IMG/VR virus record: IMGVR_UViG_3300013137_002215 | Source of the DNA: an uncultured virus (IMG/VR IMGVR_UViG_3300013137_002215) | Taxonomy: Duplodnaviria; Heunggongvirae; Uroviricota; Caudoviricetes | Length of the DNA stretch: 62,777 nt | Strand: one strand, 5' to 3' | Shown: positions 30,201 through 57,516 of the stretch, piece after piece | Layout: every line of letters begins with the position of its first letter | How positions within the stretch are numbered: the first letter of the stretch is position 1 | Notes under the pieces: model-generated | Told to the model about the DNA's origin: nothing | Seen by the model: the letters and a program-made list of their open reading frames with translations, nothing else | Database searches by the model: none | Position numbers and translations under genes: made by a program

Positions 30201-30254
30201 TATAGAACCTCCGAATTGTTTTTTATTTCATAAATATAAATTACGAATCCTCTA

Positions 30255-30665: not shown

Positions 30666-30676
30666 AATAATTCCCT

Positions 30677-32857
30677 TTAACTAAATTTAGAATAATATTG
30701 GAAAGTAATATCTCCTAATAAGAAATCACCATCATAAGTATCAGATACATTTGTTCCATTACGCTTAAATCCAATTAATACCACATCATTAGTTCCATAA
30801 CCCGAAATATCAACTTCTTGAGAAACAACAGTAAAACTATTAGCGACACCAGCCACATTAGTAAATTGATTATAAACTGTTTCTGGCAAAGCACCAGCAA
30901 CTATCAATACAGCAGAGGCGTCAATTCTTGATACGTATGCAGTTGTGGAAATTGCACCGGTATTCGCACTACTAGCTATCCCATCAAAATAACATGTTAA
31001 TGGACTTGCAGTATCTATATCATAAGGAACTAAAAAGGCCGTAGTAATCTCGCTAACCATATTGTTATTAAAACTTGGAATTAATTGATAAGAAATATTA
31101 GCAGACATTCTCAAAGGAACATCTGAGGGTGGATAATCTACGCTTTTATCTAATCCTGCTGAATCAACATAAATTGTTTTCTTTGCTCTAAATTTACCCC
31201 ATCTTATAGTTTTGGCGCTAGTAGTAGAAACCTGATGTCCGTCGCCTCTAACTTCGCCACTTCTAAAAGTCATTCCAGTTACTAACGCACCATTATTTCT
31301 AAATCTTAAAGGATATAAATCATATCCTACTGTCCAATCAGGAACTTCGTCTAAAATGTTTCTATCGCTATTCCATCCACTTACAGTATCTACATTTTCC
31401 AGTACTTTTTGAGAAATTTCTACATAATGATCTTCCACGCTTTCAAATGGTCTATTACTACTTCTATCCATTGTTTCACGATTATATGCACACATAGTTG
31501 TAGATTGCCACGCAGAACCATCCCAATATTCTGCTACAATAGTGTTAGAGCCAACATTAGCAGCACTTAATATTTCCAATCTAATAGCGGGAAACGGATA
31601 TTTTGACCCGATAATTATAGCGTCATTATTATCCGCTAATTGAGAGCCTGCATAGTCAACATATTGAGTAAATCTTGAGCCAGAAGCGTTAGAAGCATTA
31701 TAATACCAATATTCAGCGATAGTATCTCCAAATTGATCTAAATAATAACTTCTTGCGTCTCCTACATTAAAAACAATATCCTCTTGTTCATAAGTAGCTC
31801 CTGGTCTTCCCATACCAAAAGCGCCTTCAAGATTACTTTCACCAACAAATTTCGCCCCATCTAATCCTTCATCATCAGCTACTATGTCAACTGTTGCACC
31901 ACTAACAATAGAACGCTTATATGAATTAAAATGTCCACCGGAAAATGAAAATCTTGCATTTGGAGATAGTATTTTAACGTCATAAACAACCGAATCTTCT
32001 ATAATTATTCCGCTAGATTTAAAATAAGAACTGCCTGTAGTATCTATAAAAATAGCATTATCGGCGCTTTCTATATGACATGAAAGAACGTCTATATATC
32101 CATCAGAATTTACATATACTCCATTAATACAATTATTGACAGCACAAGTAAACAAATATAATTGTGAATCGGTATCTTCACAATGATATGTATAAGTGGG
32201 GCGAGTTATGGTTCCAGTAACAGAACAATCCACACATGATAAAAACCCGCCATTAATACAACTTACGAACTTACTGAATACCTTAACAGTAGAAATTCCA
32301 GTTATATTATTACAGGTTATAGATCCGCCTTGAGATAATACACCTATATCACAATTATAAATTAAACAACGAGTTATTTCACTGTTTGTATATGTAGTAG
32401 ATTTATAAGCAACATTGGAAAAAGCATTAGCGCCATAAATAGTAAATCCATTTAATATAGAACTACCAGAAGCAGAAAACACTACTCCGTCGTTACTGGG
32501 AATTACTTCGGCACTATAATAATCTCCTTCAGCATAAAGAGTGACCCAAGGAGGAATAGCTATAGGATTATCTTCGGTATATTGTCCAGGAGATACTTGA
32601 ACCGCTACAGGATCAGCTTGTGTAGGAGATAAAGCACTTGCAAGAGCTATTCCTGTTTTAATTGTTGTTGCATCGGACACTCCATCTTTTGCAACCACTA
32701 TCGTTCTAGAAGAAGCGACTAAAGACTTTAATAAATTAGCGGCGGTTATTGATTTTGACTGCCATAATCCTCCACCCATACTTTTAGATAGAGGAAACAA
32801 ATCGGCATTAGCAACCGAAGAGACATTAGATAGTTCTGATATTTTAACATTAGACAT
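30677..32857 (-). CDS. putative tail fibre/spike with pectin-lyase-like beta-helix
   Basis: N-terminal KISEL, TIKTGI..A and VSPGQYTE helix cap, beta-rich repeats. Confidence 0.6.
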   Translation of the reverse strand: MSNVKISELSNVSSVANADLFPLSKSMGGGLWQSKSITAANLLKSLVASSRTIVVAKDGVSDATTIKTGIALASALSPTQADPVAVQVSPGQYTEDNPIAIPPWVTLYAEGDYYSAEVIPSNDGVVFSASGSSILNGFTIYGANAFSNVAYKSTTYTNSEITRCLIYNCDIGVLSQGGSITCNNITGISTVKVFSKFVSCINGGFLSCVDCSVTGTITRPTYTYHCEDTDSQLYLFTCAVNNCINGVYVNSDGYIDVLSCHIESADNAIFIDTTGSSYFKSSGIIIEDSVVYDVKILSPNARFSFSGGHFNSYKRSIVSGATVDIVADDEGLDGAKFVGESNLEGAFGMGRPGATYEQEDIVFNVGDARSYYLDQFGDTIAEYWYYNASNASGSRFTQYVDYAGSQLADNNDAIIIGSKYPFPAIRLEILSAANVGSNTIVAEYWDGSAWQSTTMCAYNRETMDRSSNRPFESVEDHYVEISQKVLENVDTVSGWNSDRNILDEVPDWTVGYDLYPLRFRNNGALVTGMTFRSGEVRGDGHQVSTTSAKTIRWGKFRAKKTIYVDSAGLDKSVDYPPSDVPLRMSANISYQLIPSFNNNMVSEITTAFLVPYDIDTASPLTCYFDGIASSANTGAISTTAYVSRIDASAVLIVAGALPETVYNQFTNVAGVANSFTVVSQEVDISGYGTNDVVLIGFKRNGTNVSDTYDGDFLLGDITFQYYSKFS

Positions 32858-32907
32858 AACAATTACCCTTTCTCAATATTTCAAATAAAATATGACAATT
32901 TCCTTTT

Positions 32908-35900
32908 TCAATAAACAGTATCAAATAGTGCATTATTACTATCTTCCCAAATTACATTATCACCATTTTCCCAAATCCAGTTATAATCATCGTAACTACT
33001 GCTAGAACTGCTGCTAGAGCTACTGCTAGAACTGCTGCTAGAGGTAAATATAACTTCTACTTCAGATTCTGTTACATAAATAGAACCAGAATTATCTACA
33101 GCTACACCAACAACATATAGTCCCTCTTCTGTACCAGTATAATCTTTAATTAATGAAGGTATACCATTTTGATTAATTCGTAGTATTCTTGTTTGCGTAA
33201 CTGTATCATAATCAACGACATATAAATTACCAGAACGATCCACGTCAGAATATAATAAATAATTATATTGAGAAGTTGTAGCATCGCCTAAATAATATCC
33301 TTTTGTTCCACTTCCAGAGAATCTTAATACATTGAAATTTCTATCTAATAATTTAATCTTAAAATTGCCAGTATCAAATATAAATATTTTACCCGATCCA
33401 TCTATACAAATTGAAAAAGGAGAACTTAATTGAGCATTAGTAGAAACTCCATAACTATCTCCTGCAATACCATTTCCCGCAACTGTTATTACCTGTGATG
33501 TTCCAGCCATTATATATCTAATAGCATGGTTATTAGTATCTGCAACAAATATATTACCCGACAAATCAACTGCCACATCTGATGGGCTATTAAATCTGGC
33601 ATTTTTCCCAACACCACCAACAAATCCACTTGCACCCGTAATACTTCCTGCTATCAACGTCACATATTGATCCGGTGTTATTTTACGTATTTGATTATTG
33701 CCAGTATCTGCAACATATAAATTTCCACTTGCATCAACAGTTAATCCCAGTGGTCCATTAAATCTTGCTAGACTTGCTTTAACACGATTATTTCCATTAT
33801 TACCAGATTGACCATTGATACCTGCCCATTGTCTTACTTCACCACTTGCAGATACTTTTAGAATAACATGTCTAACTGGATCTGAAACATAAATATTACC
33901 AGATTTATCAATACAAATCCCACTAATATCTGCACTATTAATAGAATATAATTGATTTTTACCGGCTAATAAGAATCCTTTATTACCTTCGCTACTAATA
34001 TAAGATAAACCATATTTCTTCAACTGATTCCATTTAGAAAGTACAAAACTGCTAGAAGAACTGGAAAATGTTGAAGAGGTAGACGAACTAAATCCAAACG
34101 AACTGCTGGAAGAACTAGAAGTAGACGAGCTGCTCCAATTTTCTACATACGAACTGCTGCTACTTGTTGAACTGGAACTAGTTGAACTTGAAGTAGAACT
34201 TGAACTTAAACTTGTTGAGGTAGATTGAGAAGATTTAGAACTCGTTGATCTGGAACTATGACTAGAAGAAAGAGAAGTACTTGAAGAAGAACTAAAACCA
34301 AATGAACTTGTAGAAGAACTAGAACTTGAACTGGATTTTGAACTAGAACTTGAACTGACACTTGAAGATGTAGAACTGCTGGAAGAACTCGTACTAGAAC
34401 TGGAACTAGAACTATACCCATAGGAACTGCTAGAACTCGTACTTGAACTTGAACTGGAACTATAACCATAAGAGCTGGATGAGCTTGTTGAGCTACTAGT
34501 AGAACTTGAACTTGAAAGAGTAGAACTGCTACTTGAAGTTGAACTGCTGCTTGAAGACGTAGAACTGCTTGTAGAACTACTTGAAGAACTAGAACTATAC
34601 CCATAGGAACTAGAAGAACTCGTTGAACTGCTCGTTGAACTGGAACTGCTTGACGTGCTGGACGAAGAAGAGCTACTACTTGAATGACTAGAAGAACTCG
34701 TACTAGAACTAGAACTAGAACTATAACCATAAGAACTGCTAGAAGAACTGGAAGAACTTGTAGAGCTAGAAGTATTTCCAATTGATTCGCTACTAGCAGA
34801 ACTACTGGAAGTTGATTCTCCCCCAATGCTTTCACTACTGGAACTTGATGTAGAAGTGCTACTTGACGAGCTTGAACTATGAGAACTTGACGATTCACTA
34901 CTACTACTGCTTAAAGCCATACTACTAGACGAACTTGAAGAACTACTACTAGAACTAAACGAACTACTTGAAGAACTAGATATACTAGAAGAACTATATT
35001 CATAACTACTAGAACTGCTTGTAGAACTACTTGAAGAAATACTAGAAGAACTACTAATGGTACTAGAAGAACTACTAGTAGAACTACTTGAAGAACTATA
35101 ACCAAAACTACTTGAAGAACTAGAAGAAGTAGACGTCGAGCTAGCACTGGACAAACTACTCAAGGTACTAGATGAACTACTTGTAGAACTTGAAGAACTA
35201 CTTGTAGAACTTGAAGTAGAACTACTAGAACTATACATCAAACTACTAGAACTGCTTGTAGAACTACTTGTAGAACTTGAAGAGCTGCTTGTAGAACTTG
35301 AAGTACTACTTGAAGTACTACTTGAAGAACTACTGGTAGAACTACTGGTACTGGAAGAAGAACTGCTTGAATAACTACTAGAACTGGAAGAACTATACAT
35401 CAAACTACTAGAACTGCTTGTACTGCTTGATGTAGAACTACTTGTACTGGAACTACTTGTAGAACTGTTTGAAGATTTGCTACTACTAGAACTACTAGAA
35501 CTACTAGAAACACTAGAACTTGAACTTAAATCATATTCGTCGCCATAATACAACAAATTATCAATGCCGCTATAATAATCTGCCTGAATCCATGCTGCAC
35601 CAATAGCATTTACATGAATTCTAATTTCATCTATAATTCCATTAAAATTATCAGTTAATCCAGTATTACCACCTAATATCACATCATAAACACTACCCGC
35701 AGCTAATGAACCCGCATACCCACTATCATATGTGCCATTAAAATAGAAACTATAGTCTGTACCATCAAAAACAACAGTAATAAAATATCTTGTACCCGAA
35801 ACAATAGTATTACTTAGAGCCTTATCTCCAGGTGTAGAAAAATTATAAACATATACTTTATTAGTACTTCCTACTCCCAAAGCAATACTTGAACCGCCAG

Positions 35901-37497
35901 CATCAAGCCTATGAAAAGTTAAAACCCTATCATTGTCAGCACCGGCATCTATTGTTTCAGGTTTTATCCATGCAGAAAAAGAAATGGGATAGTCTGCAGT
36001 AGGAATATAGACACTAGAAGGTCTTAAATCTATAAAATCTTGTGTTGCATTATCAAAATCCTGCGCCCATCCAGCAATTGCATCTGTTGTTCTTGCTGGA
36101 ACGTTTGATATACGACCTCCACCGCCACGACCATGATAGGCATTTGCAGTACTATCTTTAAATTCTCCCTCTGTTCCATTTCCACTTTCGGCTAAGTGAT
36201 ATACAGCCCTGTATGTACCTGCAGACCATACCGCCTTACCTGGAGTAGAAGTAATATCTCCGACATAAGTAATATTATCTGGTTTGGCGTTATCATAGTA
36301 CAAATATAAATAAGCAGCTTCATTGGCGGTCATTTCTTCTGCTACGTTTACCCATAACCATGCCTCAGAAGTAGCAGGTGTTCCAGTATAATTCCAACGT
36401 TCTATTTCTACAAATGTTTGTGTTTCACCATCACACAAGGTTACTGCAATTTTATATTTGTTATTTCCAATTTCAGAAAAAATACCAGTAATGTCTTTGT
36501 TATTAACTCCAGAAGAACCAGAAATGTGCACCAAAACAGGATAGTCTATAATTCTTTCTAATATTTTTGAGTTATCAACTTTAATTTCTATTCGTTTATT
36601 CCAACTATCAAGCCATCTATATCCACAATTTAAAGAAGAACTTGAACTTGTACTGCTGGAAGAAAAACTAGAACTACTCGTTGAACTAGAAGACATAGAA
36701 CTGCTTGTAGAACTAGAACTTACAGAAGAACTAGAAGAACTTGAAGAACTTGATGAACTGCTCCAGTTTTTTACATATGATGTGCTGGACGAACTACTTG
36801 TGGAACTACTCGTAGAACTACTTGATGTGGAACTTGAAGTACTAGAAGAACTGCTGCTGGACCACGTAGACGGTTTTAAGGCAATTTGATAACTTATATT
36901 CCTTGCAACCGTAGCAGAAGTTATATTACCCGTACCAGTAGCGGTACTTTCTGGGCGCAAAGCATAACCCATTGCTCCACTAATTGTTGTACTATAAGAT
37001 GCGTCAAAAGCTTCAAGCCACGTTGCAGGATTTGAGGTGGTAACACTATACCCACTATAAGTAGTATTAATTACTTTCATACCGGTCAATAAAATCATAC
37101 AATTAGCTTCAGGTCTGATTGTTGCTGGTGCTAAATTAGCCGAATTTTGTGTTTTAATACTACTTGCGCTTATTGGACCAGTAGGATTTTCTATTTCACA
37201 ATCTATCCATGCAGTTATCCAACCAATATTAGAAGATGAGGTTCCTGTAAAAGTAAAACTAACAGCAGCAACATCTGTAGAAGTAGCAATTTTATAAAAA
37301 GTTGCACTTCTAAAAGTATTACTTCCTTGCCGTATTTGTGTCCAACCAACAGGAGCAGTAATTACAGTTGTTGTGCTAGTAAACCCACAAACCGCAATCA
37401 TTAAGTCATTAACTGTTAGTCCTACAGGTTTTGTAATAACACAACTGGCAGACGTTGCGCCTGGACTAGAGCCTGTTGATCTAAACGATATTGCCAT
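32908..37497 (-). CDS. large virion/surface protein: DUF2341-like + LamG + poly-Ser + NHL
   Basis: WNKRIEI..DYPVLV, EIERW..AWLWV, YRAVYHL, FNGIIDEIRI; several hundred Ser residues; C-terminal NHL repeats. Confidence 0.8.
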   Translation of the reverse strand: MAISFRSTGSSPGATSASCVITKPVGLTVNDLMIAVCGFTSTTTVITAPVGWTQIRQGSNTFRSATFYKIATSTDVAAVSFTFTGTSSSNIGWITAWIDCEIENPTGPISASSIKTQNSANLAPATIRPEANCMILLTGMKVINTTYSGYSVTTSNPATWLEAFDASYSTTISGAMGYALRPESTATGTGNITSATVARNISYQIALKPSTWSSSSSSSTSSSTSSSSTSSSTSSSSSTSYVKNWSSSSSSSSSSSSSVSSSSTSSSMSSSSTSSSSFSSSSTSSSSSLNCGYRWLDSWNKRIEIKVDNSKILERIIDYPVLVHISGSSGVNNKDITGIFSEIGNNKYKIAVTLCDGETQTFVEIERWNYTGTPATSEAWLWVNVAEEMTANEAAYLYLYYDNAKPDNITYVGDITSTPGKAVWSAGTYRAVYHLAESGNGTEGEFKDSTANAYHGRGGGGRISNVPARTTDAIAGWAQDFDNATQDFIDLRPSSVYIPTADYPISFSAWIKPETIDAGADNDRVLTFHRLDAGGSSIALGVGSTNKVYVYNFSTPGDKALSNTIVSGTRYFITVVFDGTDYSFYFNGTYDSGYAGSLAAGSVYDVILGGNTGLTDNFNGIIDEIRIHVNAIGAAWIQADYYSGIDNLLYYGDEYDLSSSSSVSSSSSSSSSSKSSNSSTSSSSTSSSTSSSTSSSSSLMYSSSSSSSYSSSSSSSTSSSTSSSSSSTSSSTSSSTSSSSSSTSSSTSSSSSLMYSSSSSTSSSTSSSSSSTSSSSSTLSSLSSASSTSTSSSSSSSFGYSSSSSSTSSSSSTISSSSSISSSSSTSSSSSYEYSSSSISSSSSSSFSSSSSSSSSSSSMALSSSSSESSSSHSSSSSSSTSTSSSSSESIGGESTSSSSASSESIGNTSSSTSSSSSSSSSYGYSSSSSSSTSSSSHSSSSSSSSSTSSSSSSTSSSTSSSSSYGYSSSSSSSSTSSSTSSSSSSTSSSSSTLSSSSSTSSSTSSSSSYGYSSSSSSSTSSSSSYGYSSSSSSSTSSSSSSTSSSVSSSSSSKSSSSSSSSTSSFGFSSSSSTSLSSSHSSRSTSSKSSQSTSTSLSSSSTSSSTSSSSTSSSSSYVENWSSSSTSSSSSSSFGFSSSTSSTFSSSSSSFVLSKWNQLKKYGLSYISSEGNKGFLLAGKNQLYSINSADISGICIDKSGNIYVSDPVRHVILKVSASGEVRQWAGINGQSGNNGNNRVKASLARFNGPLGLTVDASGNLYVADTGNNQIRKITPDQYVTLIAGSITGASGFVGGVGKNARFNSPSDVAVDLSGNIFVADTNNHAIRYIMAGTSQVITVAGNGIAGDSYGVSTNAQLSSPFSICIDGSGKIFIFDTGNFKIKLLDRNFNVLRFSGSGTKGYYLGDATTSQYNYLLYSDVDRSGNLYVVDYDTVTQTRILRINQNGIPSLIKDYTGTEEGLYVVGVAVDNSGSIYVTESEVEVIFTSSSSSSSSSSSSSSSSYDDYNWIWENGDNVIWEDSNNALFDTVY

Positions 37498-39470: not shown

Positions 39471-40727
39471 TTATAAACGAGACAATTCTGGACATGCCAA
39501 AATCGTCTGATTTTCTGGTTTGTAACAGGAACCGTATTTTCCTGTAAGAAATCGCTGAACTATATTCAAGGCTGCATTTATGTCAGCATTGTCAGTATAA
39601 CCACAAGCCTGACACTTGAACACTTCACCATTACGATTTCTACTATCGGCTAAGTTACAGACTGGACATGTTATACTAGTATTATAAGGCAAAACTGTAC
39701 GAAAGGAAGTACGACTTTCTTCACACAGTTGTTCCAGCCTCATTAACCAGTAAGCATAATTCCAGCTACCGATAGAAGAACGAATATTTTTACTCAATCG
39801 TCCTTTGAGTTTTGAATTTGAGTTCAAATTACTAAGTTTCTCTACTACAACCAAATCCTTATCTTTAAGAACTTCTTTTGCTACTTCATTAATTCTTTGT
39901 TTAATAGTATTAATTGCTCTTTTCTTTCCCTTTGACCCTTTTTGACAGCGTTTAGATTTTTCAATTAGTTGTTTGATATCTGTTCCAAATTGTTCTTTTT
40001 CAGATGTTGAAGCTAAAGCATTAATTCCAGTATCAATTCCAATAATGTTTTTGACTTCTTTTTTAGGTCCAGTTTCTTTTTCAAAACCAAATTGAACATA
40101 ATCTTTAGTGATTATATAAGAATTAAGTCTTTGTGCTTTTTGTTGTAACTCTCTGTAGTGTTTATGGAATTTAATAGGAATATCAAGTGTTATCTTATTA
40201 CCAATAGAGGCTAAATGCAACCAAGCGTCAAATTCTTTAGTTTGTCTTTTAGGTTTCTGTAACTCTCCAATAGTACAAGAAACCGACATCTTTGTTCCTT
40301 TATGTTTTGGTTTATGTGGCTGAATCATTAATATCTTAGATTTGTTAGCTTTGAGTTTTTTATGCCAATTATTAATTTTTCTTCTGTTCTCTTTTGTATT
40401 TGGTTGGGTAATCTTAATCTTCTTTTCTAAAGCATCAATGGTATTTTGTATTTGTTCTTTGTTCCATTCAAAAACATTCTTAACTGAACTAACCATATCT
40501 ATTGCTTCTCTTGCTGCTACCTTTCTTAAACGAGCAGACAACCAAGTATCTTTAGGAATATCCACAATAGGTTTAAGCAATTGAGTCTTATCTACTTTCT
40601 TATCCCAAAAATAATCAATGAAGATATTAACTATTTTACCATACTCTTGAAGTATAGTTTGTAGTTCTATCTTCTTTTTATTTGTAGCGAATTTAACACT
40701 ACATTTACTTGACCTGATTATTTTCAT
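39471..40727 (-). CDS. tnpB: TnpB RNA-guided endonuclease
   Basis: RuvC GIDTG / VVEKL / NADINAA; Zn finger CPVC..CQAC. Confidence 0.92.
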   Translation of the reverse strand: MKIIRSSKCSVKFATNKKKIELQTILQEYGKIVNIFIDYFWDKKVDKTQLLKPIVDIPKDTWLSARLRKVAAREAIDMVSSVKNVFEWNKEQIQNTIDALEKKIKITQPNTKENRRKINNWHKKLKANKSKILMIQPHKPKHKGTKMSVSCTIGELQKPKRQTKEFDAWLHLASIGNKITLDIPIKFHKHYRELQQKAQRLNSYIITKDYVQFGFEKETGPKKEVKNIIGIDTGINALASTSEKEQFGTDIKQLIEKSKRCQKGSKGKKRAINTIKQRINEVAKEVLKDKDLVVVEKLSNLNSNSKLKGRLSKNIRSSIGSWNYAYWLMRLEQLCEESRTSFRTVLPYNTSITCPVCNLADSRNRNGEVFKCQACGYTDNADINAALNIVQRFLTGKYGSCYKPENQTILACPELSRL

Positions 40728-41110
40728 TATGTATCTAACAATATTACTTTGTCACTATCTTCATCATACATTTCTATTCTAACAATAGCATCCCTTATAT
40801 TACCAGAAAAGTAAAACTGTCCAATTTGTTCTTCTTCGTCTCCAATAACACTATGAAAATCTTGTTGCAAATTTCCCATTTTTCTCTGATCCAAAACAAT
40901 TGTTACTTGAGGTGAATTATCTATATTTGATTGTTTTTCGGCATAATGATTAGTTATATTTTCTTGATTGTCGCCAACATAAAGATTATTTACATTATAA
41001 TCATTCGATTTAATTTTTTCAAATTGTTTCAAAGAAGTTCCATGATATAATAATTTGAGGACATATTGCTCACACAATTTTTCAAACTTGCTTGTTTTGT
41101 AAATCTTCAT
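40727..41110 (-). CDS. cargo protein, possible ADP-ribosyltransferase-like fold
   Basis: MKIYKTSK start; LLYHGTS ... HYA pattern. Confidence 0.55.
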   Translation of the reverse strand: MKIYKTSKFEKLCEQYVLKLLYHGTSLKQFEKIKSNDYNVNNLYVGDNQENITNHYAEKQSNIDNSPQVTIVLDQRKMGNLQQDFHSVIGDEEEQIGQFYFSGNIRDAIVRIEMYDEDSDKVILLDT

Positions 41111-41714
41111 TTTTCTTTTTTCTCCTATCACCACTACGTTTCCCGTAAAATTTGCCACTAAAAGATGATATTAATGCCATAATATCTCTTGCAAATTCCT
41201 GTTCGTATGGCAAGTTTTCTCCATCGTCAACATATTCAATTTTAACATCAAAAGCTCCAAAGAATTCCTCAAAAACATTAAACTGAAATCTTGTCAGCCT
41301 GTCCTTGTGCTCAATAATAACTTTTGAAATCTGTTTTTCTACTACTAATTTGAATAATTTTTGTAATTTAGGTCTTGTTCCAGAAAGACCAGAACCAACA
41401 TCTTCTAATATATGTTCTACCTTATATCCTTGTTTTACACAATATTCTACCATTCTATTTCTTTGTCGTTCTAAATCGCCCTTTGCCTTCTGCTCATGAC
41501 TACTTACTCTAACATAAATGCAACATGGTCTATTTTTAATAGGTTTGGGATTATATTGACCTAAAAATTTCTCCACAACATCAGAATCATATCGTCTAGT
41601 TCCTTTAGTAACTCTAATAGACGGGAGCGTTCCATCTTCGTCCCATCTATGAAGAGTTTTATATGTTACACCTACTAAAGATGCAACTTCTTTAATTGTT
41701 AGAACTTTTTTCAT
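41082..41714 (-). CDS. tnpA: IS607 serine recombinase TnpA
   Basis: MerR-like HTH (TLHRWDEDG), YVRVSS..QK.DLERQ, EDVGSG, DRLTRF, SFSGKFYGKRS. Confidence 0.93.
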   Translation of the reverse strand: MKKVLTIKEVASLVGVTYKTLHRWDEDGTLPSIRVTKGTRRYDSDVVEKFLGQYNPKPIKNRPCCIYVRVSSHEQKAKGDLERQRNRMVEYCVKQGYKVEHILEDVGSGLSGTRPKLQKLFKLVVEKQISKVIIEHKDRLTRFQFNVFEEFFGAFDVKIEYVDDGENLPYEQEFARDIMALISSFSGKFYGKRSGDRRKKKNEDLQNKQV

Positions 41715-41919
41715 CAGTTTTAGTAAAATTCTTATTTCTACTCTGCATAACAAGAGTATCAACCAAAATTTTAGAATTAGCATATATCTCATTAAATTCT
41801 TTTAATGACAACGCTTCATCTAATTCAAATGGCAATGGATATATATCTCCATTATCCAATTCAAACTCTGTTTTAGTTACTCTTACAACTTTCATTCCTG
41901 TTACCTTTTTAGACTTCAT
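41692..41919 (-). CDS. small ORF upstream of tnpA inside IS607
   Basis: SD GGAGA; MKVVRVTKTEFELDNG; overlaps tnpA start. Confidence 0.6.
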   Translation of the reverse strand: MKSKKVTGMKVVRVTKTEFELDNGDIYPLPFELDEALSLKEFNEIYANSKILVDTLVMQSRNKNFTKTDEKSSNN

Positions 41920-42130: not shown

Positions 42131-42613
42131 TTAATCTTTACCGCGCATTAACAACCATTTTTCGTCGCCAATATTAACCAACGTCCATTTACCTTTATAT
42201 TTGCCAGTTAATACTTCAAATTTCCATTTTTTATTGTCTTTTTCTATTGTTTTATATTCGGACTTGGCATCTATTATTACTTTACCTGCGCCATAACCTT
42301 CTGGGAGAGTACCTTCAAAATTGGAATATGATAATGGATGTGATTCAACGGAAATTGCAAGATGTTTATTACCTTTTTCCGGCATTCCTTTTCTAACTGC
42401 CCAAGATTCTAACACCCCATTATTTTCTAATCTTAAATCGTAGTGAAGATGGGCTTTATGTGCATCGTGTTTTTGGACAACAAATATGGGGTTTTTTGTT
42501 TGTTTTATAGCGCCATTTTCAGGTTCTGGAGTTATATTAAAATCACGTTTCTCTTTGTATTCTTTAAGCGATTCTTTAGATTCTATATGGCGCTTTAGAT
42601 TAAATTGTGACAT
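42131..42613 (-). CDS. LigD 3'-phosphoesterase domain protein
   Basis: YKEKRDFNITPEP, FVVQKHDA..LHYDLRLE, SWAVRKG, GYGAG. Confidence 0.9.
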   Translation of the reverse strand: MSQFNLKRHIESKESLKEYKEKRDFNITPEPENGAIKQTKNPIFVVQKHDAHKAHLHYDLRLENNGVLESWAVRKGMPEKGNKHLAISVESHPLSYSNFEGTLPEGYGAGKVIIDAKSEYKTIEKDNKKWKFEVLTGKYKGKWTLVNIGDEKWLLMRGKD

Positions 42614-42658
42614 GATGGATATTTCTGGAAAAGATTATGAAGTTCCTGTGATAAAATT

Positions 42659-42732
42659 TCAGGGCGGAGGGGATCGAACCCTCGTAACCATGGTCCCAAG
42701 CCATGTGGACAACCAACTGTCTCCACGCCCTG
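42659..42732 (-). tRNA. tRNA-Pro(UGG)
   Basis: cloverleaf; anticodon arm CATGG-CT TGG GA-CCATG; TTCGA T-loop. Confidence 0.9.
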
Positions 42733-42738
42733 TTAAAT

Positions 42739-42816
42739 TGGCACGGCAGAGGGGACTCGAACCCCCAAAGTTCGGGATGAAAACCCGATGAAGTTAGCCA
42801 ATTTTTCTACTGCCGC
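42739..42816 (-). tRNA. tRNA-Glu(UUC)
   Basis: TCGGG-TT TTC AT-CCCGA; encoded CCA. Confidence 0.9.
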
Positions 42817-42829
42817 ATATAAATTATTT

Positions 42830-42905
42830 TGGTAGGCGCATCCAGAATTGAACTGGAAACTAAACCGTATCAGGATTTCGTGATGGACCTTTTCACCATG
42901 CGCCC
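42830..42905 (-). tRNA. tRNA-Ile(GAU)
   Basis: AAATC-CT GAT AC-GGTTT; encoded CCA. Confidence 0.88.
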
Positions 42906-42909
42906 ATAC

Positions 42910-43071
42910 TTAATTTTTCTCTTTTTTCATATTTTTTATAAATAAAACTGCTTCTTTCGCGCAATCTTTTATATTACATCTGCCATCACGAACAAATATA
43001 CCTATACCAATTGCGCCACGATTTCTCAACTTATTCAACTCTTTATTTAACCCTTTCACTACTGTTTTCAT
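42910..43071 (-). CDS. small hypothetical protein within the tRNA cluster (53 aa)
   Basis: SD AGGAG; MKTVVKGLNKEL... Confidence 0.5.
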   Translation of the reverse strand: MKTVVKGLNKELNKLRNRGAIGIGIFVRDGRCNIKDCAKEAVLFIKNMKKEKN

Positions 43072-43133
43072 TTTTCTCCTTTTTCAATTCCCATATCGTA
43101 GTGTTGTACGCTTCAATCTATAAAGCAAAATTT

Positions 43134-43207
43134 TGGGCGGGTGATGGGTATTGAACCCACTTAAACGGCTCCACAGACCGTCGCATTACCTTTATGCTAC
43201 ACTCGCC
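43134..43207 (-). tRNA. tRNA-His(GUG)
   Basis: ACGGT-CT GTG GA-GCCGT; encoded G-1 and C73. Confidence 0.88.
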
Positions 43208-43263
43208 ATTTTTGACTATTTATACACTTTCTTCTCTTTAATTCGCCATATTTGACGAAATAT

Positions 43264-43379
43264 TAGTGGGGTAAATAGGAATCAAACCTACACTCGTTGG
43301 TTGCCTTTTTATTTGCTGAAAGTAACCTTTAAACAGATTCATTTTTATACCCACTGTGCTTCCGTTACACCACCGCCCC
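43264..43379 (-). ncRNA. tRNA-like RNA with a 49-nt anticodon loop
   Basis: acceptor GGGGCGG/TTACCCC, D arm GTGT/GCAC, T arm GTAGG TTTGATT CCTAT; loop 43301-43349. Confidence 0.6.
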
Positions 43380-43402
43380 TATATTTTCAAAGAACGATCA
43401 CT

Positions 43403-43441
43403 AAAAACAAAAAACCCTTCCAGATTATCTCTGAAAGGGTT
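43403..43441 (-). terminator. attenuator terminator of tRNA operon 1
   Basis: AACCCTTTCAGA-GATAA-TCTGGAAGGGTT + TTTTGTTTTT. Confidence 0.85.
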
Positions 43442-43464
43442 AGCGATCCAAATTTTGGGTTAGA

Positions 43465-43533
43465 TTAGATCGTACCCCCTTCCAGATGTTCTTCTGGAAT
43501 CTCAATCATGGGGATATGAATTCTAATCGTCAT
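43465..43533 (-). CDS. leader peptide MTIRIHIPMIEIPEEHLEGGTI
   Basis: SD AAGGA and ATGA overlap with upstream ORF; Ile/His/Pro/Glu-rich; contains antiterminator TCTGGAAGGG. Confidence 0.8.
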   Translation of the reverse strand: MTIRIHIPMIEIPEEHLEGGTI

Positions 43534-43718
43534 ATTGTTTCCTTATTCTCCAAATTATTCTTAATTTCCTTTTTATTTCTTATAAAATAATGTGTTTCTC
43601 TGCATTTTGGCTTACATTTGTGACATTCTTTTCTATTAGAACTATGTGTAGAAAACTCCTTACCACATATCCTGCAATTAAGTCTTACCCTACCTGGAAA
43701 TTTAATCTTTTCTTTCAT
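43530..43718 (-). CDS. small Zn-finger protein
   Basis: CRICG...CHKCKPKC; SD AAAGGA. Confidence 0.6.
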   Translation of the reverse strand: MKEKIKFPGRVRLNCRICGKEFSTHSSNRKECHKCKPKCRETHYFIRNKKEIKNNLENKETI

Positions 43719-43745
43719 AGTTCCTTTCGCATCTTTGTAACACTT

Positions 43746-43774
43746 ATATTATACACACAAAAATCACATGTCAA
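43746..43774 (-). promoter_or_regulatory. sigma70-type promoter of tRNA operon 1
   Basis: TTGACA-17-TAATAT (overlapping TGTATAAT). Confidence 0.7.
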
Positions 43775-43817
43775 TATTTATTTTTTTATGTTTCGGAAGA
43801 CTAAAGAGAACAAAAGA

Positions 43818-44450
43818 CTAACCTAAAAATTGCGTTTTTAAGTCTTCAAACACATTAGGACACTTTTCGCATAGTTGTCTTAACATTTCTTTAGCGATAT
43901 CTCTTATTTCCCATTGAGCATGTTTATCACATCTTACTTTAAATATATTCCTATATTCTCTAAAATTAGCACTCATAACTATTTCGGTATGACAAGCATT
44001 GGGAAGAACAAAACGGGCATCTTCATTTTTCAACCCGAATTTCTTCCATTTATCATACATTCGTTGTATTTTAGTCATATCCTGCCTAAACTCATCTGTT
44101 GCCGCACAATATCCCTCAACATAATCCGACACAATGCTTTTTTCTGATTTTAATATTGCCTCTGGAACAACATAATCAAATTGATCTTCTTTTACGTATC
44201 TCTGGCTTTGCTGAGAATAAGATGCAATGCGATGTCTAACAAGCTGATGAGTTAACGCCCTAGACACCTCACCAATCCTAAAAGTAGCATATCCGTGTTC
44301 TAAAACCGACTCGTGACCGCTTTTAATTAGTGATTTTATTAGAGTTCCAACGACATACCCATCTTTAGAAACACTTTGATAACATGTCCTACCAGCGTTT
44401 TCTATAAGCTCTTCTGCATTAGGCGTAATAGATAGCAATTCAACTTTCAT
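43818..44450 (-). CDS. thyX: FAD-dependent thymidylate synthase
   Basis: GHESVLEH, HQLVRHRIASYSQQSQRY, EDARFVLP, AQWEIR. Confidence 0.95.
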   Translation of the reverse strand: MKVELLSITPNAEELIENAGRTCYQSVSKDGYVVGTLIKSLIKSGHESVLEHGYATFRIGEVSRALTHQLVRHRIASYSQQSQRYVKEDQFDYVVPEAILKSEKSIVSDYVEGYCAATDEFRQDMTKIQRMYDKWKKFGLKNEDARFVLPNACHTEIVMSANFREYRNIFKVRCDKHAQWEIRDIAKEMLRQLCEKCPNVFEDLKTQFLG

Positions 44451-44716: not shown

Positions 44717-45253
44717 TTATTTTCCCATTTTATACCAAGGACGAGCATCATCAAATACCTTACTACGACTTATTGCTGTTTTTCTAGCTTGTATCATTAT
44801 TGCATTCTTTTCTTCCATGCCTAATCCTGCTTCAGCACCTAATATATACGCATCTACTATTTGAATAGCTACATCCTGTTTTTCTTTCCATTCAGGGTGA
44901 GTAGCAAACAGCATATCTATCCCACCAAGTAATGATAATGCACCAGCTTTACATAATGGACGATATTGCGCCTCTATCTTAGTATCAATAAATATAACCA
45001 AAGCAGGATAGATCGTTTCAGTATATGTAGAACCAGCCTGTACTTCGTCTGCCTTATCCTTAATTATACTTAGTAATAATTTAACACCGGCTATTTCTTC
45101 GGTTGTTGGATTATCCATAGCTATCCAACCCACAGCAGTAAACAATCCTGCATTCTGTGCTACCACTTTAATTTGTTCAGTTTGGCATCCGGTGAATAAT
45201 AACGTCGATAAACATAACACCCCAACTAACACACTACTTGCTAACTGTTTCAT
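44717..45253 (-). CDS. putative lipoprotein
   Basis: signal peptide ending LLFTGC. Confidence 0.65.
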   Translation of the reverse strand: MKQLASSVLVGVLCLSTLLFTGCQTEQIKVVAQNAGLFTAVGWIAMDNPTTEEIAGVKLLLSIIKDKADEVQAGSTYTETIYPALVIFIDTKIEAQYRPLCKAGALSLLGGIDMLFATHPEWKEKQDVAIQIVDAYILGAEAGLGMEEKNAIMIQARKTAISRSKVFDDARPWYKMGK

Positions 45254-45798
45254 TTGTATCCCCTTCCTTTTTTTTCTTGTTTTGTTTTAACCATTTTAAC
45301 CGTAATATTGCGTTCAGTTTTTTTCCTAGAAACCTCTTTTCCTGCCACACATAGACTTACAATACTATTAAATTTCTCTTCTGCCAAGTTAAAAAAGTTG
45401 ATTTGCCTTCCTCTTAAGTTCATTTCCACCAACACATCGTCGCCCTCATTTAAAAACTCATTAATTTGTTTGACCTTATAATCTATATCGTGTTGTGCAA
45501 TATCTGGAGTGAACTTCATTTCTTTTAAATGTCTTTTACCGTGTTTTTCGTTTTCTTTTTGTTTCTTATCCTGTTCATATTTCCATTTGCCATAATTCAT
45601 CATTTTACAAAGTGGCAACTTGTTATTATCGCCTTTATCAATACATACGAGATCTAATCCATTATCATGTGCTTCGTGCATTGCAGTATATAAATCCATA
45701 TCTTCTTTATAACCACCTGACACATCTATAAGTCTTATTTTCCTGCTTAAACGAGTATTATTGGTAATTATAAATGCTGAATTAGAACCGTTATTCAT
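45250..45798 (-). CDS. infC: translation initiation factor IF-3
   Basis: IRLID, GLDLV, PLCKMMNYGKWKYE, LKEMKF.P.IAQHD, FL.EGD.V..RGRQ. Confidence 0.9.
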   Translation of the reverse strand: MNNGSNSAFIITNNTRLSRKIRLIDVSGGYKEDMDLYTAMHEAHDNGLDLVCIDKGDNNKLPLCKMMNYGKWKYEQDKKQKENEKHGKRHLKEMKFTPDIAQHDIDYKVKQINEFLNEGDDVLVEMNLRGRQINFFNLAEEKFNSIVSLCVAGKEVSRKKTERNITVKMVKTKQEKKGRGYK

Positions 45799-46681: not shown

Positions 46682-47617
46682 TCAAAAATACCTTGATAAA
46701 TATAAACTACTAAATTCCGTGTCATATTCTTGCGCCTTAAACTCATCTGATTTATAATTATACATATAAATAATCTCGTTTCCACAAAAATAAACACATG
46801 CGCCTAAAGACAAACTAAATATAACATTATTTTTCTCTACAGACGGACTTTCTTTAAAAGTATTGCCATCTAAAAATATATTGCGCATCATGCATTTCCC
46901 ATCAACACTTGTAAAAACATAACTATAAAACTTCTTTTTTTCTCTGGTTGTTGGTTCCATATGATACGTCCCAAAATCATCGGGCAGTCTATATCCGATT
47001 CTAAAAGTAGAACCGCAATTCAAATAATCATATATGTTCCCAACACACGCACCATAATTAGGAATAATATCATAGTAATCTTTTTTTATCTTATATTTCT
47101 TTTGGTAAATTAAATCTGCTCCAAGCTCGTCACGTATTTGATATTTCCAACCATTAGGATGTTGTGCGCCAAATTGTTTATGCATCCATATTTGCGTTTC
47201 ATCAGAATAAGAAGATTTACCTGTTGTTCCGATATCCAACTCCCAAAAATCCAATTCTTTACTATCATAAGCTATTAAGGAATATCCTCCATATAGCCAA
47301 CCACCATAAGGACGATCTTCAGGTAGAAATTCCGTCGCTTTTAAATCTGAAGGGGTATACATATATTGTGCAACCGAATAGCCACTTTGACTATTTTTGT
47401 TTGGATATAAGTTTTCAAACCATTTATATGATCCCTCTTTAACATATAAAATTCTGGTGCCATGAGTATAATACCTGTCATGATAATATAAAATATCGTT
47501 TTCAAAAGAAACATTTACCATGTTTGCCGAACCAGCAGCAGTCAAAAACATCAATAAAAACAAAATATAAAAAACTATCATAATTATTCTATTCATCACA
47601 ATCGCGCTATCTATCAT
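46682..47617 (-). CDS. lpxR: lipid A deacylase LpxR family (DUF2219) beta-barrel
   Basis: signal peptide, FEND..DRYYTHG, QYMYTPSD, DRPYGGWLY, GWKYQI, NIFLDGN, terminal F. Confidence 0.82.
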   Translation of the reverse strand: MIDSAIVMNRIIMIVFYILFLLMFLTAAGSANMVNVSFENDILYYHDRYYTHGTRILYVKEGSYKWFENLYPNKNSQSGYSVAQYMYTPSDLKATEFLPEDRPYGGWLYGGYSLIAYDSKELDFWELDIGTTGKSSYSDETQIWMHKQFGAQHPNGWKYQIRDELGADLIYQKKYKIKKDYYDIIPNYGACVGNIYDYLNCGSTFRIGYRLPDDFGTYHMEPTTREKKKFYSYVFTSVDGKCMMRNIFLDGNTFKESPSVEKNNVIFSLSLGACVYFCGNEIIYMYNYKSDEFKAQEYDTEFSSLYLSRYF

Positions 47618-52374: not shown

Positions 52375-53733
52375 AAACGTGAGCAGAAACCCCGACATCT
52401 TTAGTGTCGGGGAGGTAAGCGAATTACTTAACCCGCTTCCTTCCACTTCTCCTTTGCTATTTATTATACCTAAAATATTTTAAGATTCAAGCAGGATTTT
52501 TCTTAAAAATATAGAATAACATAATTATGAACATATTAACATATAATATTAAATTAGAGTTTCAGAATCAAAAAGACAAAGATTCTCTGATTGATTTACT
52601 ATTAGAACATCAAAAAGTATGGAACTATATGTCAGAATATGTTTTTAAATCCAAAAAGGTAGATAAAAAGTTAATTCACGATAAAAACTATAAGAAATGC
52701 AGAAAACTGTTCCCAAATTGTCCTTCCCAAGTAGTTATCAGAGCAAAAGATTCGGTCTACGCTACCTATAGAACAATTCAGTCTAACAAACATAAATTAG
52801 AAGAATCCGCTAAACAAGAAAATCTATCAATAAGATTAGATAAGAGAATTTATACTTTTCTTCCAGATAATAAAATTAAACTAACAACCACTGGGAAAAG
52901 AATAACCTGCTCCTATACTCCTTATGACAAATTCAGAGATATGTTCTCTAAATATTCTGTTTGTGACCCATTACTTTTTGTTAGAAATAATGAAGTTTGG
53001 CTTTCGGTATCATTTGAAGTTTCAACCCCTACCCTTATAGAAGGTAGTTGTATCGGAGTGGATTTAGGCATAAAAAGATTAGCAACTACCTCTGAGGGAT
53101 TAACAATTACAGATAAGAAGTTCCTTAAAGAAAAAAGACAAATAAGACATCTAAAGAGTATATTAAAATCAAAAAGCAAAACTACTTTTTCCCGTTCTGC
53201 CCAAAGAAAACTAAAAAAACTAAAAAGAAAAGAGCATAACAAAAACAAGAACCAATCACATCTTATTGCTAACAAAATATTAGAAACCAAATCTAATGTT
53301 ATTGTTATGGAAGATTTGACTAAAATAAAGTCAGAAAATAAGGGAAAGAGATTTAATAATAGACAATCTCAAGTTCCCTATTTTGAGTTAAGAAAAATAC
53401 TAACCTACAAGGCACCATTATTAGGCAAAATAGTGGTAACGGTTGACCCTGCCTATACTTCTAAGAACGATTATAGAGGCATAGAAAAAGGCAAAAGACA
53501 GGGATGTAGGTATTACACAAGCGATAACAATGTTTTTGATGCTGATTGGAATGCGGCTATAAACATTGCTAATCGTTACGCCATGAGAAAGAAAGTTAAG
53601 GGCGTAGAACTCCCTGTTTCGTTTAATATACCTATTGATGGTAGATTAAACCTAATAGGCAAGCCATATCAACTGGCTAATTGTGAGATAAGGTCTTGCA
53701 AACCCAATGATCTTCAGTCATTAGGTAGTTGAT
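52375..53733 (+). mobile_element. IS200/IS605-type tnpB-only element
   Basis: left hairpin CCCCGACA-TCTTTAG-TGTCGGGG (52390-52412); right hairpin ACCCAATGA..TCATTAGGT followed by AGTTGAT; left boundary approximate. Confidence 0.8.
52527..53732 (+). CDS. tnpB: TnpB/Cas12f-like nuclease lacking the C-terminal Zn finger
   Basis: GVDLG, VMEDL, DPAYTS, DADWNAAINIA; no CxxC pairs. Confidence 0.88.
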   Translation: MNILTYNIKLEFQNQKDKDSLIDLLLEHQKVWNYMSEYVFKSKKVDKKLIHDKNYKKCRKLFPNCPSQVVIRAKDSVYATYRTIQSNKHKLEESAKQENLSIRLDKRIYTFLPDNKIKLTTTGKRITCSYTPYDKFRDMFSKYSVCDPLLFVRNNEVWLSVSFEVSTPTLIEGSCIGVDLGIKRLATTSEGLTITDKKFLKEKRQIRHLKSILKSKSKTTFSRSAQRKLKKLKRKEHNKNKNQSHLIANKILETKSNVIVMEDLTKIKSENKGKRFNNRQSQVPYFELRKILTYKAPLLGKIVVTVDPAYTSKNDYRGIEKGKRQGCRYYTSDNNVFDADWNAAINIANRYAMRKKVKGVELPVSFNIPIDGRLNLIGKPYQLANCEIRSCKPNDLQSLGS

Positions 53734-54895: not shown

Positions 54896-54993
54896 GGCTG
54901 GAGAGACAGGCTTCGCTCCTGCACACACACCCGATTAGAGGTGTCATGATCGGCTTAACAGGCCGACCCCTTGCTAGTTAGGGCAACTCTCCA
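54896..54993 (-). tRNA. tRNA-Asn(GUU), atypical (27-nt variable region, T-loop AGCGAAG)
   Basis: TGGAGAG/CTCTCCA, G73; TCGGC-CT GTT AA-GCCGA. Confidence 0.75.
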
Positions 54994-55553: not shown

Positions 55554-55597
55554 AAATAAAAAGCCCCCTTCAAGATATTTTATCCTAAAGAGGGCAA
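55554..55597 (-). terminator. attenuator terminator of tRNA operon 2
   Basis: GCCCTCTTTAGGATA...TATCTTGAAGGGGGC + TTTTTATTT. Confidence 0.8.
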
Positions 55598-55613
55598 GAT
55601 AGTAGAATAACTA

Positions 55614-55667
55614 TCAGTGCCCTTTCAGGCATTGATTATTTTGGTTATTCTGTTGATTCATTTTCAT
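55614..55667 (-). CDS. leader peptide MKMNQQNNQNNQCLKGH
   Basis: nine consecutive Asn/Gln codons; antiterminator CCTGAAAGGGCA. Confidence 0.85.
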   Translation of the reverse strand: MKMNQQNNQNNQCLKGH

Positions 55668-56831: not shown

Positions 56832-56926
56832 TGGTGCGGGTAACAGGACTCGAACCTGCATTAGCCATAAGGCATCAGTTTCCACTTATCCTTATCTACT
56901 TAGAAGGTAGATGGAACTATACCCGC
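56832..56926 (-). tRNA. tRNA-Arg(UCU)-like RNA with rearranged D region
   Basis: GCGGGTA/TACCCGC-ACCA, canonical T arm, TCTAC-CT TCT AA-GTAGA nested within a GTTCCA/TGGAAAC stem. Confidence 0.65.
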
Positions 56927-56931
56927 AAAAA

Positions 56932-57387: not shown

Positions 57388-57424
57388 AAAAAAAAGCCCG
57401 TATCACTTGTCTGATACGGGCTTT
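57388..57424 (-). terminator. attenuator terminator of tRNA operon 3
   Basis: AAAGCCCGTATCA-GACAAG-TGATACGGGCTTT + T tract. Confidence 0.9.
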
Positions 57425-57444
57425 CCTTTTCTATGTCCCATTAG

Positions 57445-57516
57445 CTAGACAAAATGGGACAAAAGAATGCCCGTATAAGGCATCCTATCCCAACGATCTT
57501 GTCTTAGCGATATCAT
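57445..57516 (-). CDS. leader peptide MISLRQDRWDRMPYTGILLSHFV
   Basis: SD GAGGTG; AGA CAA GAT CGT TGG GAT AGG ATG; antiterminator ATACGGGC. Confidence 0.82.
   Translation of the reverse strand: MISLRQDRWDRMPYTGILLSHFV

Follow-up and report, generated by a model that had tools for sequence, protein, structure and literature searches.

The 62,777-nucleotide (nt) stretch of DNA deposited as IMG/VR record IMGVR_UViG_3300013137_002215, called here the window, derives from an uncultured virus of the Caudoviricetes. On its minus strand a cluster of transfer RNA (tRNA) genes for His, Ile, Glu and Pro is preceded by a short open reading frame (ORF) and a predicted intrinsic terminator. This unit is interpreted, with a probability of about 0.8, as a ribosome-mediated (leader-peptide) transcription attenuator of a phage tRNA operon, in which the control codons are those read by the tRNAs under its control; the phage would probably produce these tRNAs only when their supply to the ribosomes falls short. 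The evidence consists of the features of the sequence, their conservation in related phages, the co-variation of leader and terminator, and the match between leader codons and downstream tRNAs. An attenuator had been proposed at this place by an earlier, sequence-only reading of the window, and the leaders found in relatives, the co-variation of their terminators and the discovery of further codon-matched units support that proposal. The Ile/His/Pro/Glu unit is referred to as W1, and the second and third units of the window as W2 and W3.

The leader of W1 and its control codons

The W1 leader (Table 1) reads ATG ACG ATT AGA ATT CAT ATC CCC ATG ATT GAG ATT CCA GAA GAA CAT CTG GAA GGG GGT ACG ATC TAA, and the sequence AAGGA is found 7 nt upstream of its ATG. 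Codon frequencies were compared with a background of 16,386 codons, contained in the 57 long ORFs of the window. Codons cognate to the downstream His, Ile(GAU), Glu and Pro tRNAs make up 14 of the 21 positions following the start, against a background of 14.4% (binomial p 7e-8). Inspection of the minus strand confirmed that 12 of the 14 codons from 3 to 16 encode Ile, His, Pro or Glu, and that Ile codons are exclusively of the ATY type, both as previously claimed: six are ATT or ATC and none is ATA, while ATA accounts for 632 of the 1356 Ile codons (47%) in the long ORFs of the window. The tRNAs named in the same claim, His, Ile, Glu and Pro, were all four found downstream.

A leader-peptide attenuator is expected to contain a short translatable ORF and control codons. 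The former is represented by a frame provided with a start codon and an upstream AAGGA, having equivalents in all of the five tRNA-bearing relatives described below; the latter by the codon enrichment, together with the outcome of the permutation analysis reported for the further units.

Predicted alternative structures of the W1 transcript

The predicted terminator is a hairpin of 12 pairs with a 5-nt loop (43441-43413), followed by TTTTGTTTTT and located 34 nt upstream of the first tRNA-like gene, an arrangement which, as far as sequence can tell, is that of an intrinsic terminator. A leader segment, ATCTGGAAGGG, repeats the terminator 3' arm as a 16-nt direct repeat with 88% identity, and the duplex predicted between region 2, which contains this copy, and the terminator 5' arm reaches -16.8 kcal/mol, a value matched by none of 500 shuffled leaders. 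The duplication of the terminator arm and its capacity for pairing elsewhere, both noticed beforehand, are thus borne out. Of the alternative structures then envisaged, the pairing switch was retrieved by folding; the switch is however composed of four segments, not three, by addition of an upstream region 1.

The sequence from the start of the ORF to region 2 folds with -15.2 kcal/mol, and the helix between regions 1 and 2 (1:2) is part of the minimum free energy structure of the free RNA. Because region 1 pairs with the leader copy, the four-segment switch should, according to the folding model, respond to lack of leader translation with termination instead of readthrough. The antiterminator, formed by regions 2 and 3, is capped by an apical hairpin which encloses the leader stop codon TAA (43467-43465); an equivalent hairpin is present in all of the 8 units which were folded and in the RNAalifold consensus of the 6 orthologues. 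Mutually exclusive 1:2, 2:3 and 3:4 pairings, as required for attenuation, were found in W1 and throughout the 8 folded units.

Folding was also performed under constraints mimicking the presence of a ribosome. The free RNA contains the 1:2 helix and the terminator in 8/8 units, and the terminator also forms in 8/8 when a ribosome is placed at the stop codon. When the nascent transcript, still lacking region 4, is folded with a ribosome at codon 10, the 2:3 antiterminator and its apical hairpin are obtained, again in all 8 units. For the full-length W1 RNA, the antiterminator prevails even at equilibrium when the ribosomal A site is at codon 6 or 8.

The sequence CTAACCC occurs twice within 43437-43463 (minus strand), once in the apical loop between leader stop and terminator and once where the terminator 5' arm begins, and a similar ACCC-like loop motif is seen in the relatives; the repeat may offer the G-run of region 2 an early point of contact.

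Table 1. Features of the three attenuator-like units of the window and of the leaders found in related phages. Positions refer to the window; promoter-like sites are scored as matches out of 12 consensus positions.
Feature	Sequence	Position	Strand	Remarks
W1 promoter-like site	TTGACA-17-TAATAT	43746..43774	-	10/12, best of the region; upstream of Zn-ribbon ORF and leader
Zn-ribbon ORF		43530..43718	-	62 amino acids (aa); TGA overlaps leader ATG (ATGA)
W1 leader ORF	MTIRIHIPMIEIPEEHLEGGTI	43465..43533	-	22 codons, control codons 3-16; from ORF list
W1 region 1	ATCCCC (43515-43510) + TTCCAGA (43499-43493)	43493..43515	-	pairs with region 2; inverted repeat TTCCAGA/TCTGGAA
W1 region 2	ATCTGGAAGGGGGT	43474..43487	-	copy of terminator 3' arm; alternative partners region 1 and region 3
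W1 antiterminator apical hairpin	CGATCTAA / TTGGATCG	43444..43472	-	from stalled-ribosome and nascent-transcript folds
W1 region 3, terminator 5' arm	AACCCTTTCAGA	43430..43441	-	inverted repeat
W1 region 4, terminator 3' arm and T-run	TCTGGAAGGGTT (43424-43413) + TTTTGTTTTT	43403..43424	-	predicted hairpin -17.1 kcal/mol
tRNA-like gene with insert		43267..43379	-	Rfam tRNA 29.9 bits, cut-off 29; first gene after terminator
tRNA-His(gtg)		43135..43206	-	
53-aa ORF		42910..43071	-	between tRNA-His and tRNA-Ile; AAAGGAG upstream; no Pfam or PHROG match
tRNA-Ile(gat)		42905-42830	-	
tRNA-Glu(ttc)		42816-42739	-	
tRNA-Pro(tgg)		42732-42659	-	
W2 leader	MISLRQDRWDRMPYTGILLSHFV	57516-57445	-	predicted terminator 57429-57388; unit 57388..57516
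W3 promoter-like site	TTGACA-16-TATATT	55701-55674	-	11/12
W3 leader	MKMNQQNNQNNQCLKGH	55667-55614	-	predicted terminator 55595-55563; unit 55563..55667
L006 leader	MKMIVQIPEHIIENPEPITGEGVVD			
L007 leader	MKMINHIPEHIEIIPEPRIPGGDVV			
L008 leader	MKMNRIINHIPEIQIPEPILRGFMG			
L013 leader	MKKYIHVPEHIEIIPEPKGRVMA			
L041/G001 leader	MKMNINTIHIPEHIEIPEPIGKGYGCVMS			before His, Ile, Glu, Pro tRNAs
G001 Asn/Gln leader				before Asn, Gln, Asn tRNAs
G001 Phe leader	contains FSFFSF			before tRNA-Phe
G001 Lys/Val/Thr leader	KTKTVEKATVFKKTV			before Lys, Val, Thr, Thr tRNAs

Proposed mechanism

Translation of the leader, stalling of the ribosome, efficiency of termination and direction of the response are inferred from the features described above, and would combine as follows. 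Host RNA polymerase would start at the sigma-70-like promoter and transcribe the leader, whose 22-codon ORF would be translated by a ribosome. With charged tRNA-Ile(GAU), tRNA-His, tRNA-Pro and tRNA-Glu in plentiful supply, the ribosome would reach the stop codon, where it would cover region 2 and melt the apical hairpin, so that the 3:4 terminator could form and transcription would end before the tRNA genes. Should one of the cognate tRNAs be scarce, the ribosome would stall at the control codons and cover region 1; region 2, left free, would pair with region 3 as soon as this emerges, the terminator would not form and transcription would read through into the tRNA-like gene and the genes for tRNA-His, tRNA-Ile, tRNA-Glu and tRNA-Pro. 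In the absence of translation, 1:2 and 3:4 would both form and transcription would stop. Such a supply loop would be self-limiting, because its tRNA products relieve the stall.

Conservation and co-variation in related phages

Relatives were collected by a ThyX-based scan of metagenome contigs, which produced 30 loci; 23 were scanned for tRNAs, leaving out L025, L028, L030, L031 and L033-L035, which are short or less than 50% identical. The His/Ile/Glu/Pro tRNA cluster was found downstream of thyX in 4 of the 23 loci: L006, L007, L008 and L013, whose ThyX proteins are 85%, 73%, 68% and 65% identical to that of the window. The tRNA-Ile(gat) of L008 was detected by Rfam and by ARAGORN at relaxed threshold only. 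One more of the 23 loci, L026, contains a single, unrelated tRNA on the opposite strand, and tRNAs are absent from 18. A sixth copy of the unit, L041, was detected in a 161-kb IMG/VR record (G001) by searching for a back-translated MKM...IPE...PEP pattern.

All of the five tRNA-bearing relatives (L006, L007, L008, L013 and L041) keep the unit in front of the His/Ile/Glu/Pro tRNAs. In each orthologous leader, Ile, His, Pro and Glu account for 12-15 of 21-28 codons, and the differences are mostly synonymous or consist in a reshuffling of the same four residues, whose order is shuffled in W1, L006 and L008 and well kept in L007, L013 and L041. Taken together, the leaders use every codon available for Pro (four), Glu (two) and His (two), and the pooled Ile codons (n=33) comprise 21 ATT, 10 ATC and 2 ATA, the last both at codons 4-5, outside the core. 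Since codons vary synonymously and the full codon sets are used across leaders, it is the composition of the leader, not its nucleotide sequence, that is conserved.

The terminator sequence is different in every phage, and in each the 3' part of the leader is complementary to the 5' arm of its own terminator. The predicted leader:terminator duplexes range between -16.7 and -26.8 kcal/mol, values reached by 0-7 of 500 shuffles in the 7 units evaluated, and in a 7x7 cross matrix of leaders and terminators only 6 of the 5040 possible assignments do as well as the true one. Both the 2:3 helix and its apical hairpin were recovered when RNAalifold was applied to the six antiterminator segments, and of the 11 pairs 4 carry double changes.

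Further units with other codon sets

W2 precedes a cluster composed of tRNA-Arg(acg), a weak tRNA(CAU), Asp and Arg(cct) tRNAs, a tRNA-like element with a UCU-type loop, and Trp and Met tRNAs (57253-56677). Within codons 5-12 of its leader, 7 of 8 are cognate (AGA, GAT, CGT, TGG, GAT, AGG, ATG), and its antiterminator duplex, of -18.3 kcal/mol, is reached by 7 of 500 shuffles. W3 is located upstream of an ORF similar to T4 gp30.3, followed by tRNA-Gln(ttg) and tRNA-Asn(gtt) (55538-54896). Its codons 4-12 are all Asn or Gln (9/9), for a total of 9/16 over the whole leader (p 4e-6), and its antiterminator duplex, of -16.7 kcal/mol, is reached by a single shuffle out of 500. When the leaders of W1, W2 and W3 were compared with tRNA sets not their own, all six off-diagonal comparisons were at background.

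The window was also scanned, without reference to tRNAs, for terminators associated with an ATG-initiated ORF of 10-45 codons, ending within 75 nt, and with an antiterminator duplex at least as strong as -13 kcal/mol. Of 15 terminator calls, some of them overlapping, 3 fitted this description, and these are the units ahead of the three tRNA clusters of the window. The flanks of the relatives yielded three weaker ORF-terminator combinations, not accompanied by tRNAs.

The G001 record, with 23 tRNA matches, contains four units with distinct codon sets, one of them for Ile/His/Pro/Glu. For the five codon classes available (Ile/His/Pro/Glu, Arg/Asp/Trp/Met and Asn/Gln from the window, Phe and Lys/Thr/Val from G001), the true assignment of leaders to tRNAs is the single best of 120 permutations.

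Two side features of these units were recorded. The 1:2 hairpin of W2 (57455-57492, minus strand) is followed by TTTTGTCT and was itself called a terminator by the scan; it might serve for pausing or be a first terminator. In W3, the ATG of the leader lies about 7 nt past the -10 element of the 11/12 promoter-like site, and the leader may be translated from a leaderless mRNA.

Weight of the evidence and alternative explanations

Several observations do not favor the attenuator interpretation. At the level of codons, the enrichment in W2 is modest (7 of 22 codons, p 0.016), a non-cognate CAA being included in its control run, and the Phe leader of G001 has just 5 Phe codons out of 26. On inspection, no unit accompanies two G001 tRNA clusters, at about 47.2 kb and 54 kb, one of them with Ala/Gly tRNAs and one with Leu and other tRNAs; attenuator control is therefore not universal. 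At the level of structure, the antiterminator of full-length RNA wins at equilibrium, and only for some stall positions, in 4/8 units (W1, L006, L008 and L013), and never does so with a stalled ribosome in L007, L041, W2 and W3; for this reason the model needs, as the textbook cases do, a co-transcriptional kinetic argument. The last four cognate codons of W1, 13-16, adjoin region 2 so closely that a ribosome stalled there should, in the model, cover region 2 and favor termination. The promoter consensus scan is not enriched over shuffled sequences (17 sites found against 17.5 expected), and promoters were assigned by position only. Only in W1, and in none of the relatives, is the leader preceded by a fused, translated gene. 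Finally, a stalled ribosome cannot distinguish scarcity of a tRNA from scarcity of its amino acid.

One alternative is a less specific device, reporting any slowing or shortage of ribosomes, as caused by host shut-off, antibiotics or stress, with codon composition playing a secondary role. Such a role has been proposed for attenuators based on upstream ORFs, as in whiB7; any stall upstream of region 2 works in the folding model, and non-cognate codons are present in the leaders as well. The tRNA arrays of Anabaena are induced by general translational stress through a repressor protein (PMC10272220). A general sensor of this kind is nonetheless unlikely, considering that five codon sets match their own tRNAs better than in any other permutation, with mismatched comparisons at background, and that Ile codons shun ATA, not read by tRNA-Ile(GAU), which accounts for 2/33 of them in the leaders against 47% genome-wide. 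It is more improbable still that the terminator simply closes the thyX/Zn-ribbon transcript unconditionally, beside an ORF which is there by chance or encodes a micropeptide, the tRNAs then stemming from leaky termination or from a promoter that escaped recognition. AT-rich DNA does commonly contain short ORFs and terminators, weak combinations of the two were flagged three times away from tRNAs in the relatives, and an AT-rich motif, GTTCTTTGA(A/T)AA, follows the terminators of W1, L006 and W2. This motif, however, is about as frequent in the window as chance predicts (4 copies, with 3.7 expected), no promoter-like site of at least 9/12 is found on the minus strand from the terminator to tRNA-Pro, and the promoter-like site of the relatives lies just upstream of the leader, not past the terminator; moreover, all 6 phages share the ORF, its composition and its pairing with a terminator that itself changes.

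Two further explanations were weighed. Pro-rich motifs can slow elongation, and three of the leaders (L007, L013 and L041) retain their residue order well, so that the peptide core (HIPEHIEIIPEP-like) might arrest the ribosome via the exit tunnel or its Pro motifs, independently of tRNA supply. Given that the order is shuffled and composition kept in W1, L006 and L008, and that the peptides of the other units are different (NQQNNQNNQ, RQDRWDRM, KTKTVEKATVFKKTV, FSFFSF), each matching its own tRNAs, arrest by the nascent peptide has very little to recommend it. Direct sensing of uncharged tRNA without translation of the ORF, in the manner of T-box leaders, which also choose between terminator and antiterminator in response to tRNA, appears the least credible of all: the units are far shorter than a T-box leader, and have a start codon, a fixed stop inside the antiterminator and synonymous variation. 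The T-box model has no match at the gathering threshold in the window and none at E up to 10 within 42500-43900. No other Rfam leader family reaches its gathering threshold in the window, the best being Thr_leader (RF00506), on W2, with 28.5 bits against a cut-off of 55, and sub-threshold, chance-level matches only are seen around W1.

Relation to known systems and possible significance

Multivalent attenuators are known in enterobacteria, such as thrL, with Thr and Ile codons, and the ilvGMEDA leader, with Ile, Leu and Val codons, along with trpL, hisL, leuL and pheL. The units described here share with the thr and ilv type a short leader with control codons for several amino acids, the 1:2, 2:3 and 3:4 helices, an intrinsic terminator, and a stop codon so placed that a ribosome blocks the antiterminator. 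They differ in that tRNA genes, and not biosynthetic enzymes, are regulated, four amino acids being sensed by W1, and in that the control codons match the downstream anticodons, so that the product acts directly on the sensor. Nor does the Rfam comparison reveal any relationship in sequence to those leaders. Leader-peptide control of a gene of the translation apparatus is known for pheST, with its pheM leader peptide; there too attenuation acts on part of the apparatus that decodes the amino acid concerned, but the target is an aminoacyl-tRNA synthetase encoded by a bacterial chromosome, whereas here it is phage tRNA genes. T-boxes, which regulate synthetase and amino-acid genes, also report the state of a specific tRNA by the choice between terminator and antiterminator; they bind the tRNA directly and need no ribosome, and no T-box match was found here.

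Phage tRNA genes are usually treated as constitutive supplements to codon usage or as spares against host defences, and to our knowledge the control exerted by phages over their own tRNA genes is largely unexplored. An accessory tRNA cluster which remains off until translation is troubled has been described in Anabaena PCC 7120, namely the trn array, which TrcR represses and translational stress induces (PMC10272220). There a ribbon-helix-helix repressor acts at the promoter without codon specificity, while here a cis-acting RNA switch would be read by the ribosome, with one unit for each subset of tRNAs; the terms attenuat, leader, uORF (upstream ORF) and terminator have 0 occurrences in the text of that paper (PMC10272220). 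Full-text literature searches yielded no description of leader-peptide attenuation of tRNA genes. The mechanism is a known one; what is new is its target, the tRNA genes, and the self-referential codon logic, replicated in five specificities.

A trp-style attenuator in which control codons correspond to the governed anticodons would constitute a direct feedback from decoding speed to tRNA synthesis. Since three units in the window and four in G001 have each their own codon and tRNA set, the phage appears to meter tRNA supply per codon family. As a tentative extension, which we regard as possible but doubtful, the lineage would possess a panel of independent codon-specific sensors of tRNA demand, providing closed-loop homeostasis of tRNAs per codon family during infection. 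On this extended reading a phage could also answer the loss of host tRNAs, as caused by shut-off or by anticodon-nuclease defences, by inducing only those which are missing; the units would form a natural, modular set of sensors for single tRNAs, and control of tRNA genes by a ribosome-read attenuator would be known here for the first time.

If they function as interpreted, the units would also be compact natural reporters of the availability of single tRNAs. They measure about 130 nt, and laboratory bacteria should be able to use both their promoter-like sites, which are of the sigma-70 type, and their intrinsic terminators; at least five swappable specificities exist among them, which makes the idea testable in several ways.

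Sequences flanking W1

Promoter-like sites were scored against a sigma-70-type consensus. A shared motif found 3' of the terminators (GTTCTTTGAAAAT, TTGAAAATAGTTCTTG) was considered as a promoter and dropped, its frequency in the window being that expected by chance. In L013, a TTGATT-17-TATAAT site 3' of the terminator was not counted as a bypass, as judged by eye, because it ends 1 nt before tRNA-His and transcription would start inside the tRNA.

The Zn-ribbon ORF has no match in Pfam or PHROG, and two homologues, with 57% and 67% identity, were detected by BLASTP. In their alignment C15, C18, C32, C35 and C39 are invariant, a core EFSTHSSNR...CHxCKPKCRE is shared, and conservation stops at residue 45 (F45), leaving a tail which is not conserved. 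Judging from these alignments, the ORF is a real gene. Its tail overlies AAAGGAAxT...GAATAAGG, a stretch of untranslated leader sequence kept in the five relatives, from which the ORF is absent and in which a promoter-like site is found 60-85 nt upstream of the leader. On account of this overlap, the Zn-ribbon gene of W1 is placed between the promoter and the old 5' untranslated region. The ATGA overlap by which the sequence-only reading had coupled a Zn-finger ORF to the leader does exist, and may feed ribosomes into the W1 leader; it does not belong to the conserved device, because all five relatives do without the ORF and have a promoter-like site of their own.

In the tRNA-like gene immediately following the terminator, some 50 nt take the place of the 9-nt anticodon loop region expected by the model, and the gene was called by ARAGORN at relaxed threshold only, as 'Phe(aaa) plus a 40-nt intron'. 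A counterpart, also bearing the insert, was found in L006 (4253-4367), and the two differ by compensatory changes, located in the acceptor stem and in a small hairpin of the insert. Many other tRNAs of this phage group are of unusual size or shape. Glu, Pro, Ile and His tRNAs of L006, L007, L013 and G001 are oversized (85-91 nt), and the tRNA-Asn of the window (54896-54993, minus strand) is 98 nt long, with a variable arm of about 25 nt. Two odd tRNAs are located at 56835-56927 and 57096-57168 (minus strand), a tRNA-like element with a CUUCUAA loop and the weak tRNA(CAU); the former matches the tRNA-Sec model only, and weakly.

Searches for additional copies

Further searches were run against IMG/VR. 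The exact terminator sequence of W1 and a back-translated PEHIEIIPEP pattern gave 0 matches each; ThyX and Zn-ribbon relatives were limited to distant loci, none of them tRNA-bearing, and relatives of the W3 gp30.3-like protein to 4 loci, again none tRNA-bearing, so that W3 was left without comparison by that route. The second match to the MKM...IPE...PEP pattern, L040, was a chance match within a long frame. A HIPEHIEI pattern matched twice, once in the contig of L041 and once in L065, a contig-end fragment without terminator or tRNA, which was not counted. The same pattern had 32 matches in genome contigs, taken as due to chance: 27 fall within open frames of more than 100 codons, and the remaining 5, among them L081, L082, L088 and L091, within short frames (17-41 codons) that have no downstream tRNAs.

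General features of the window

The window has a G+C content of about 30%, and nearly all its genes are carried by the minus strand; the contig to which it belongs is given as 124,777 nt in the protein database. No DNA match was found among 50,697 deposited phage records, and the best identity of its ThyX within the phage collection is 42.9%, a cultured relative not being found. The only sequencing runs listed as containing it are three DNA runs from lake water, one of which is possibly its source; no RNA run is among them. Its proteins include ThyX, an IF3 homologue, a RecD-like helicase, the gp30.3-like and an LpxR-like protein, and two TnpB-like proteins. The window is taken to belong to a large uncultured phage whose bacterial host uses sigma-70-type promoters and intrinsic terminators.

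Some of the other genes deserve mention. A pair of the IS607 type, in which a serine-recombinase/MerR-type ORF lies beside a TnpB-like ORF, occupies 39471-41792 (minus strand), and the second TnpB-like ORF is found, inside the phage genome, at 52527-53732 (plus strand). The IF3 homologue, which has both domains, the LpxR-like outer-membrane lipid A deacylase and a protein with a LigD 3'-phosphoesterase domain are encoded at 45250-45798, 46682-47617 and 42131-42613 (minus strand), the last directly 3' of tRNA-Pro. Three large NHL-repeat/beta-propeller proteins (425, 409 and 1529 aa) are encoded within 27574-37497 (minus strand), where G+C rises up to 0.37.

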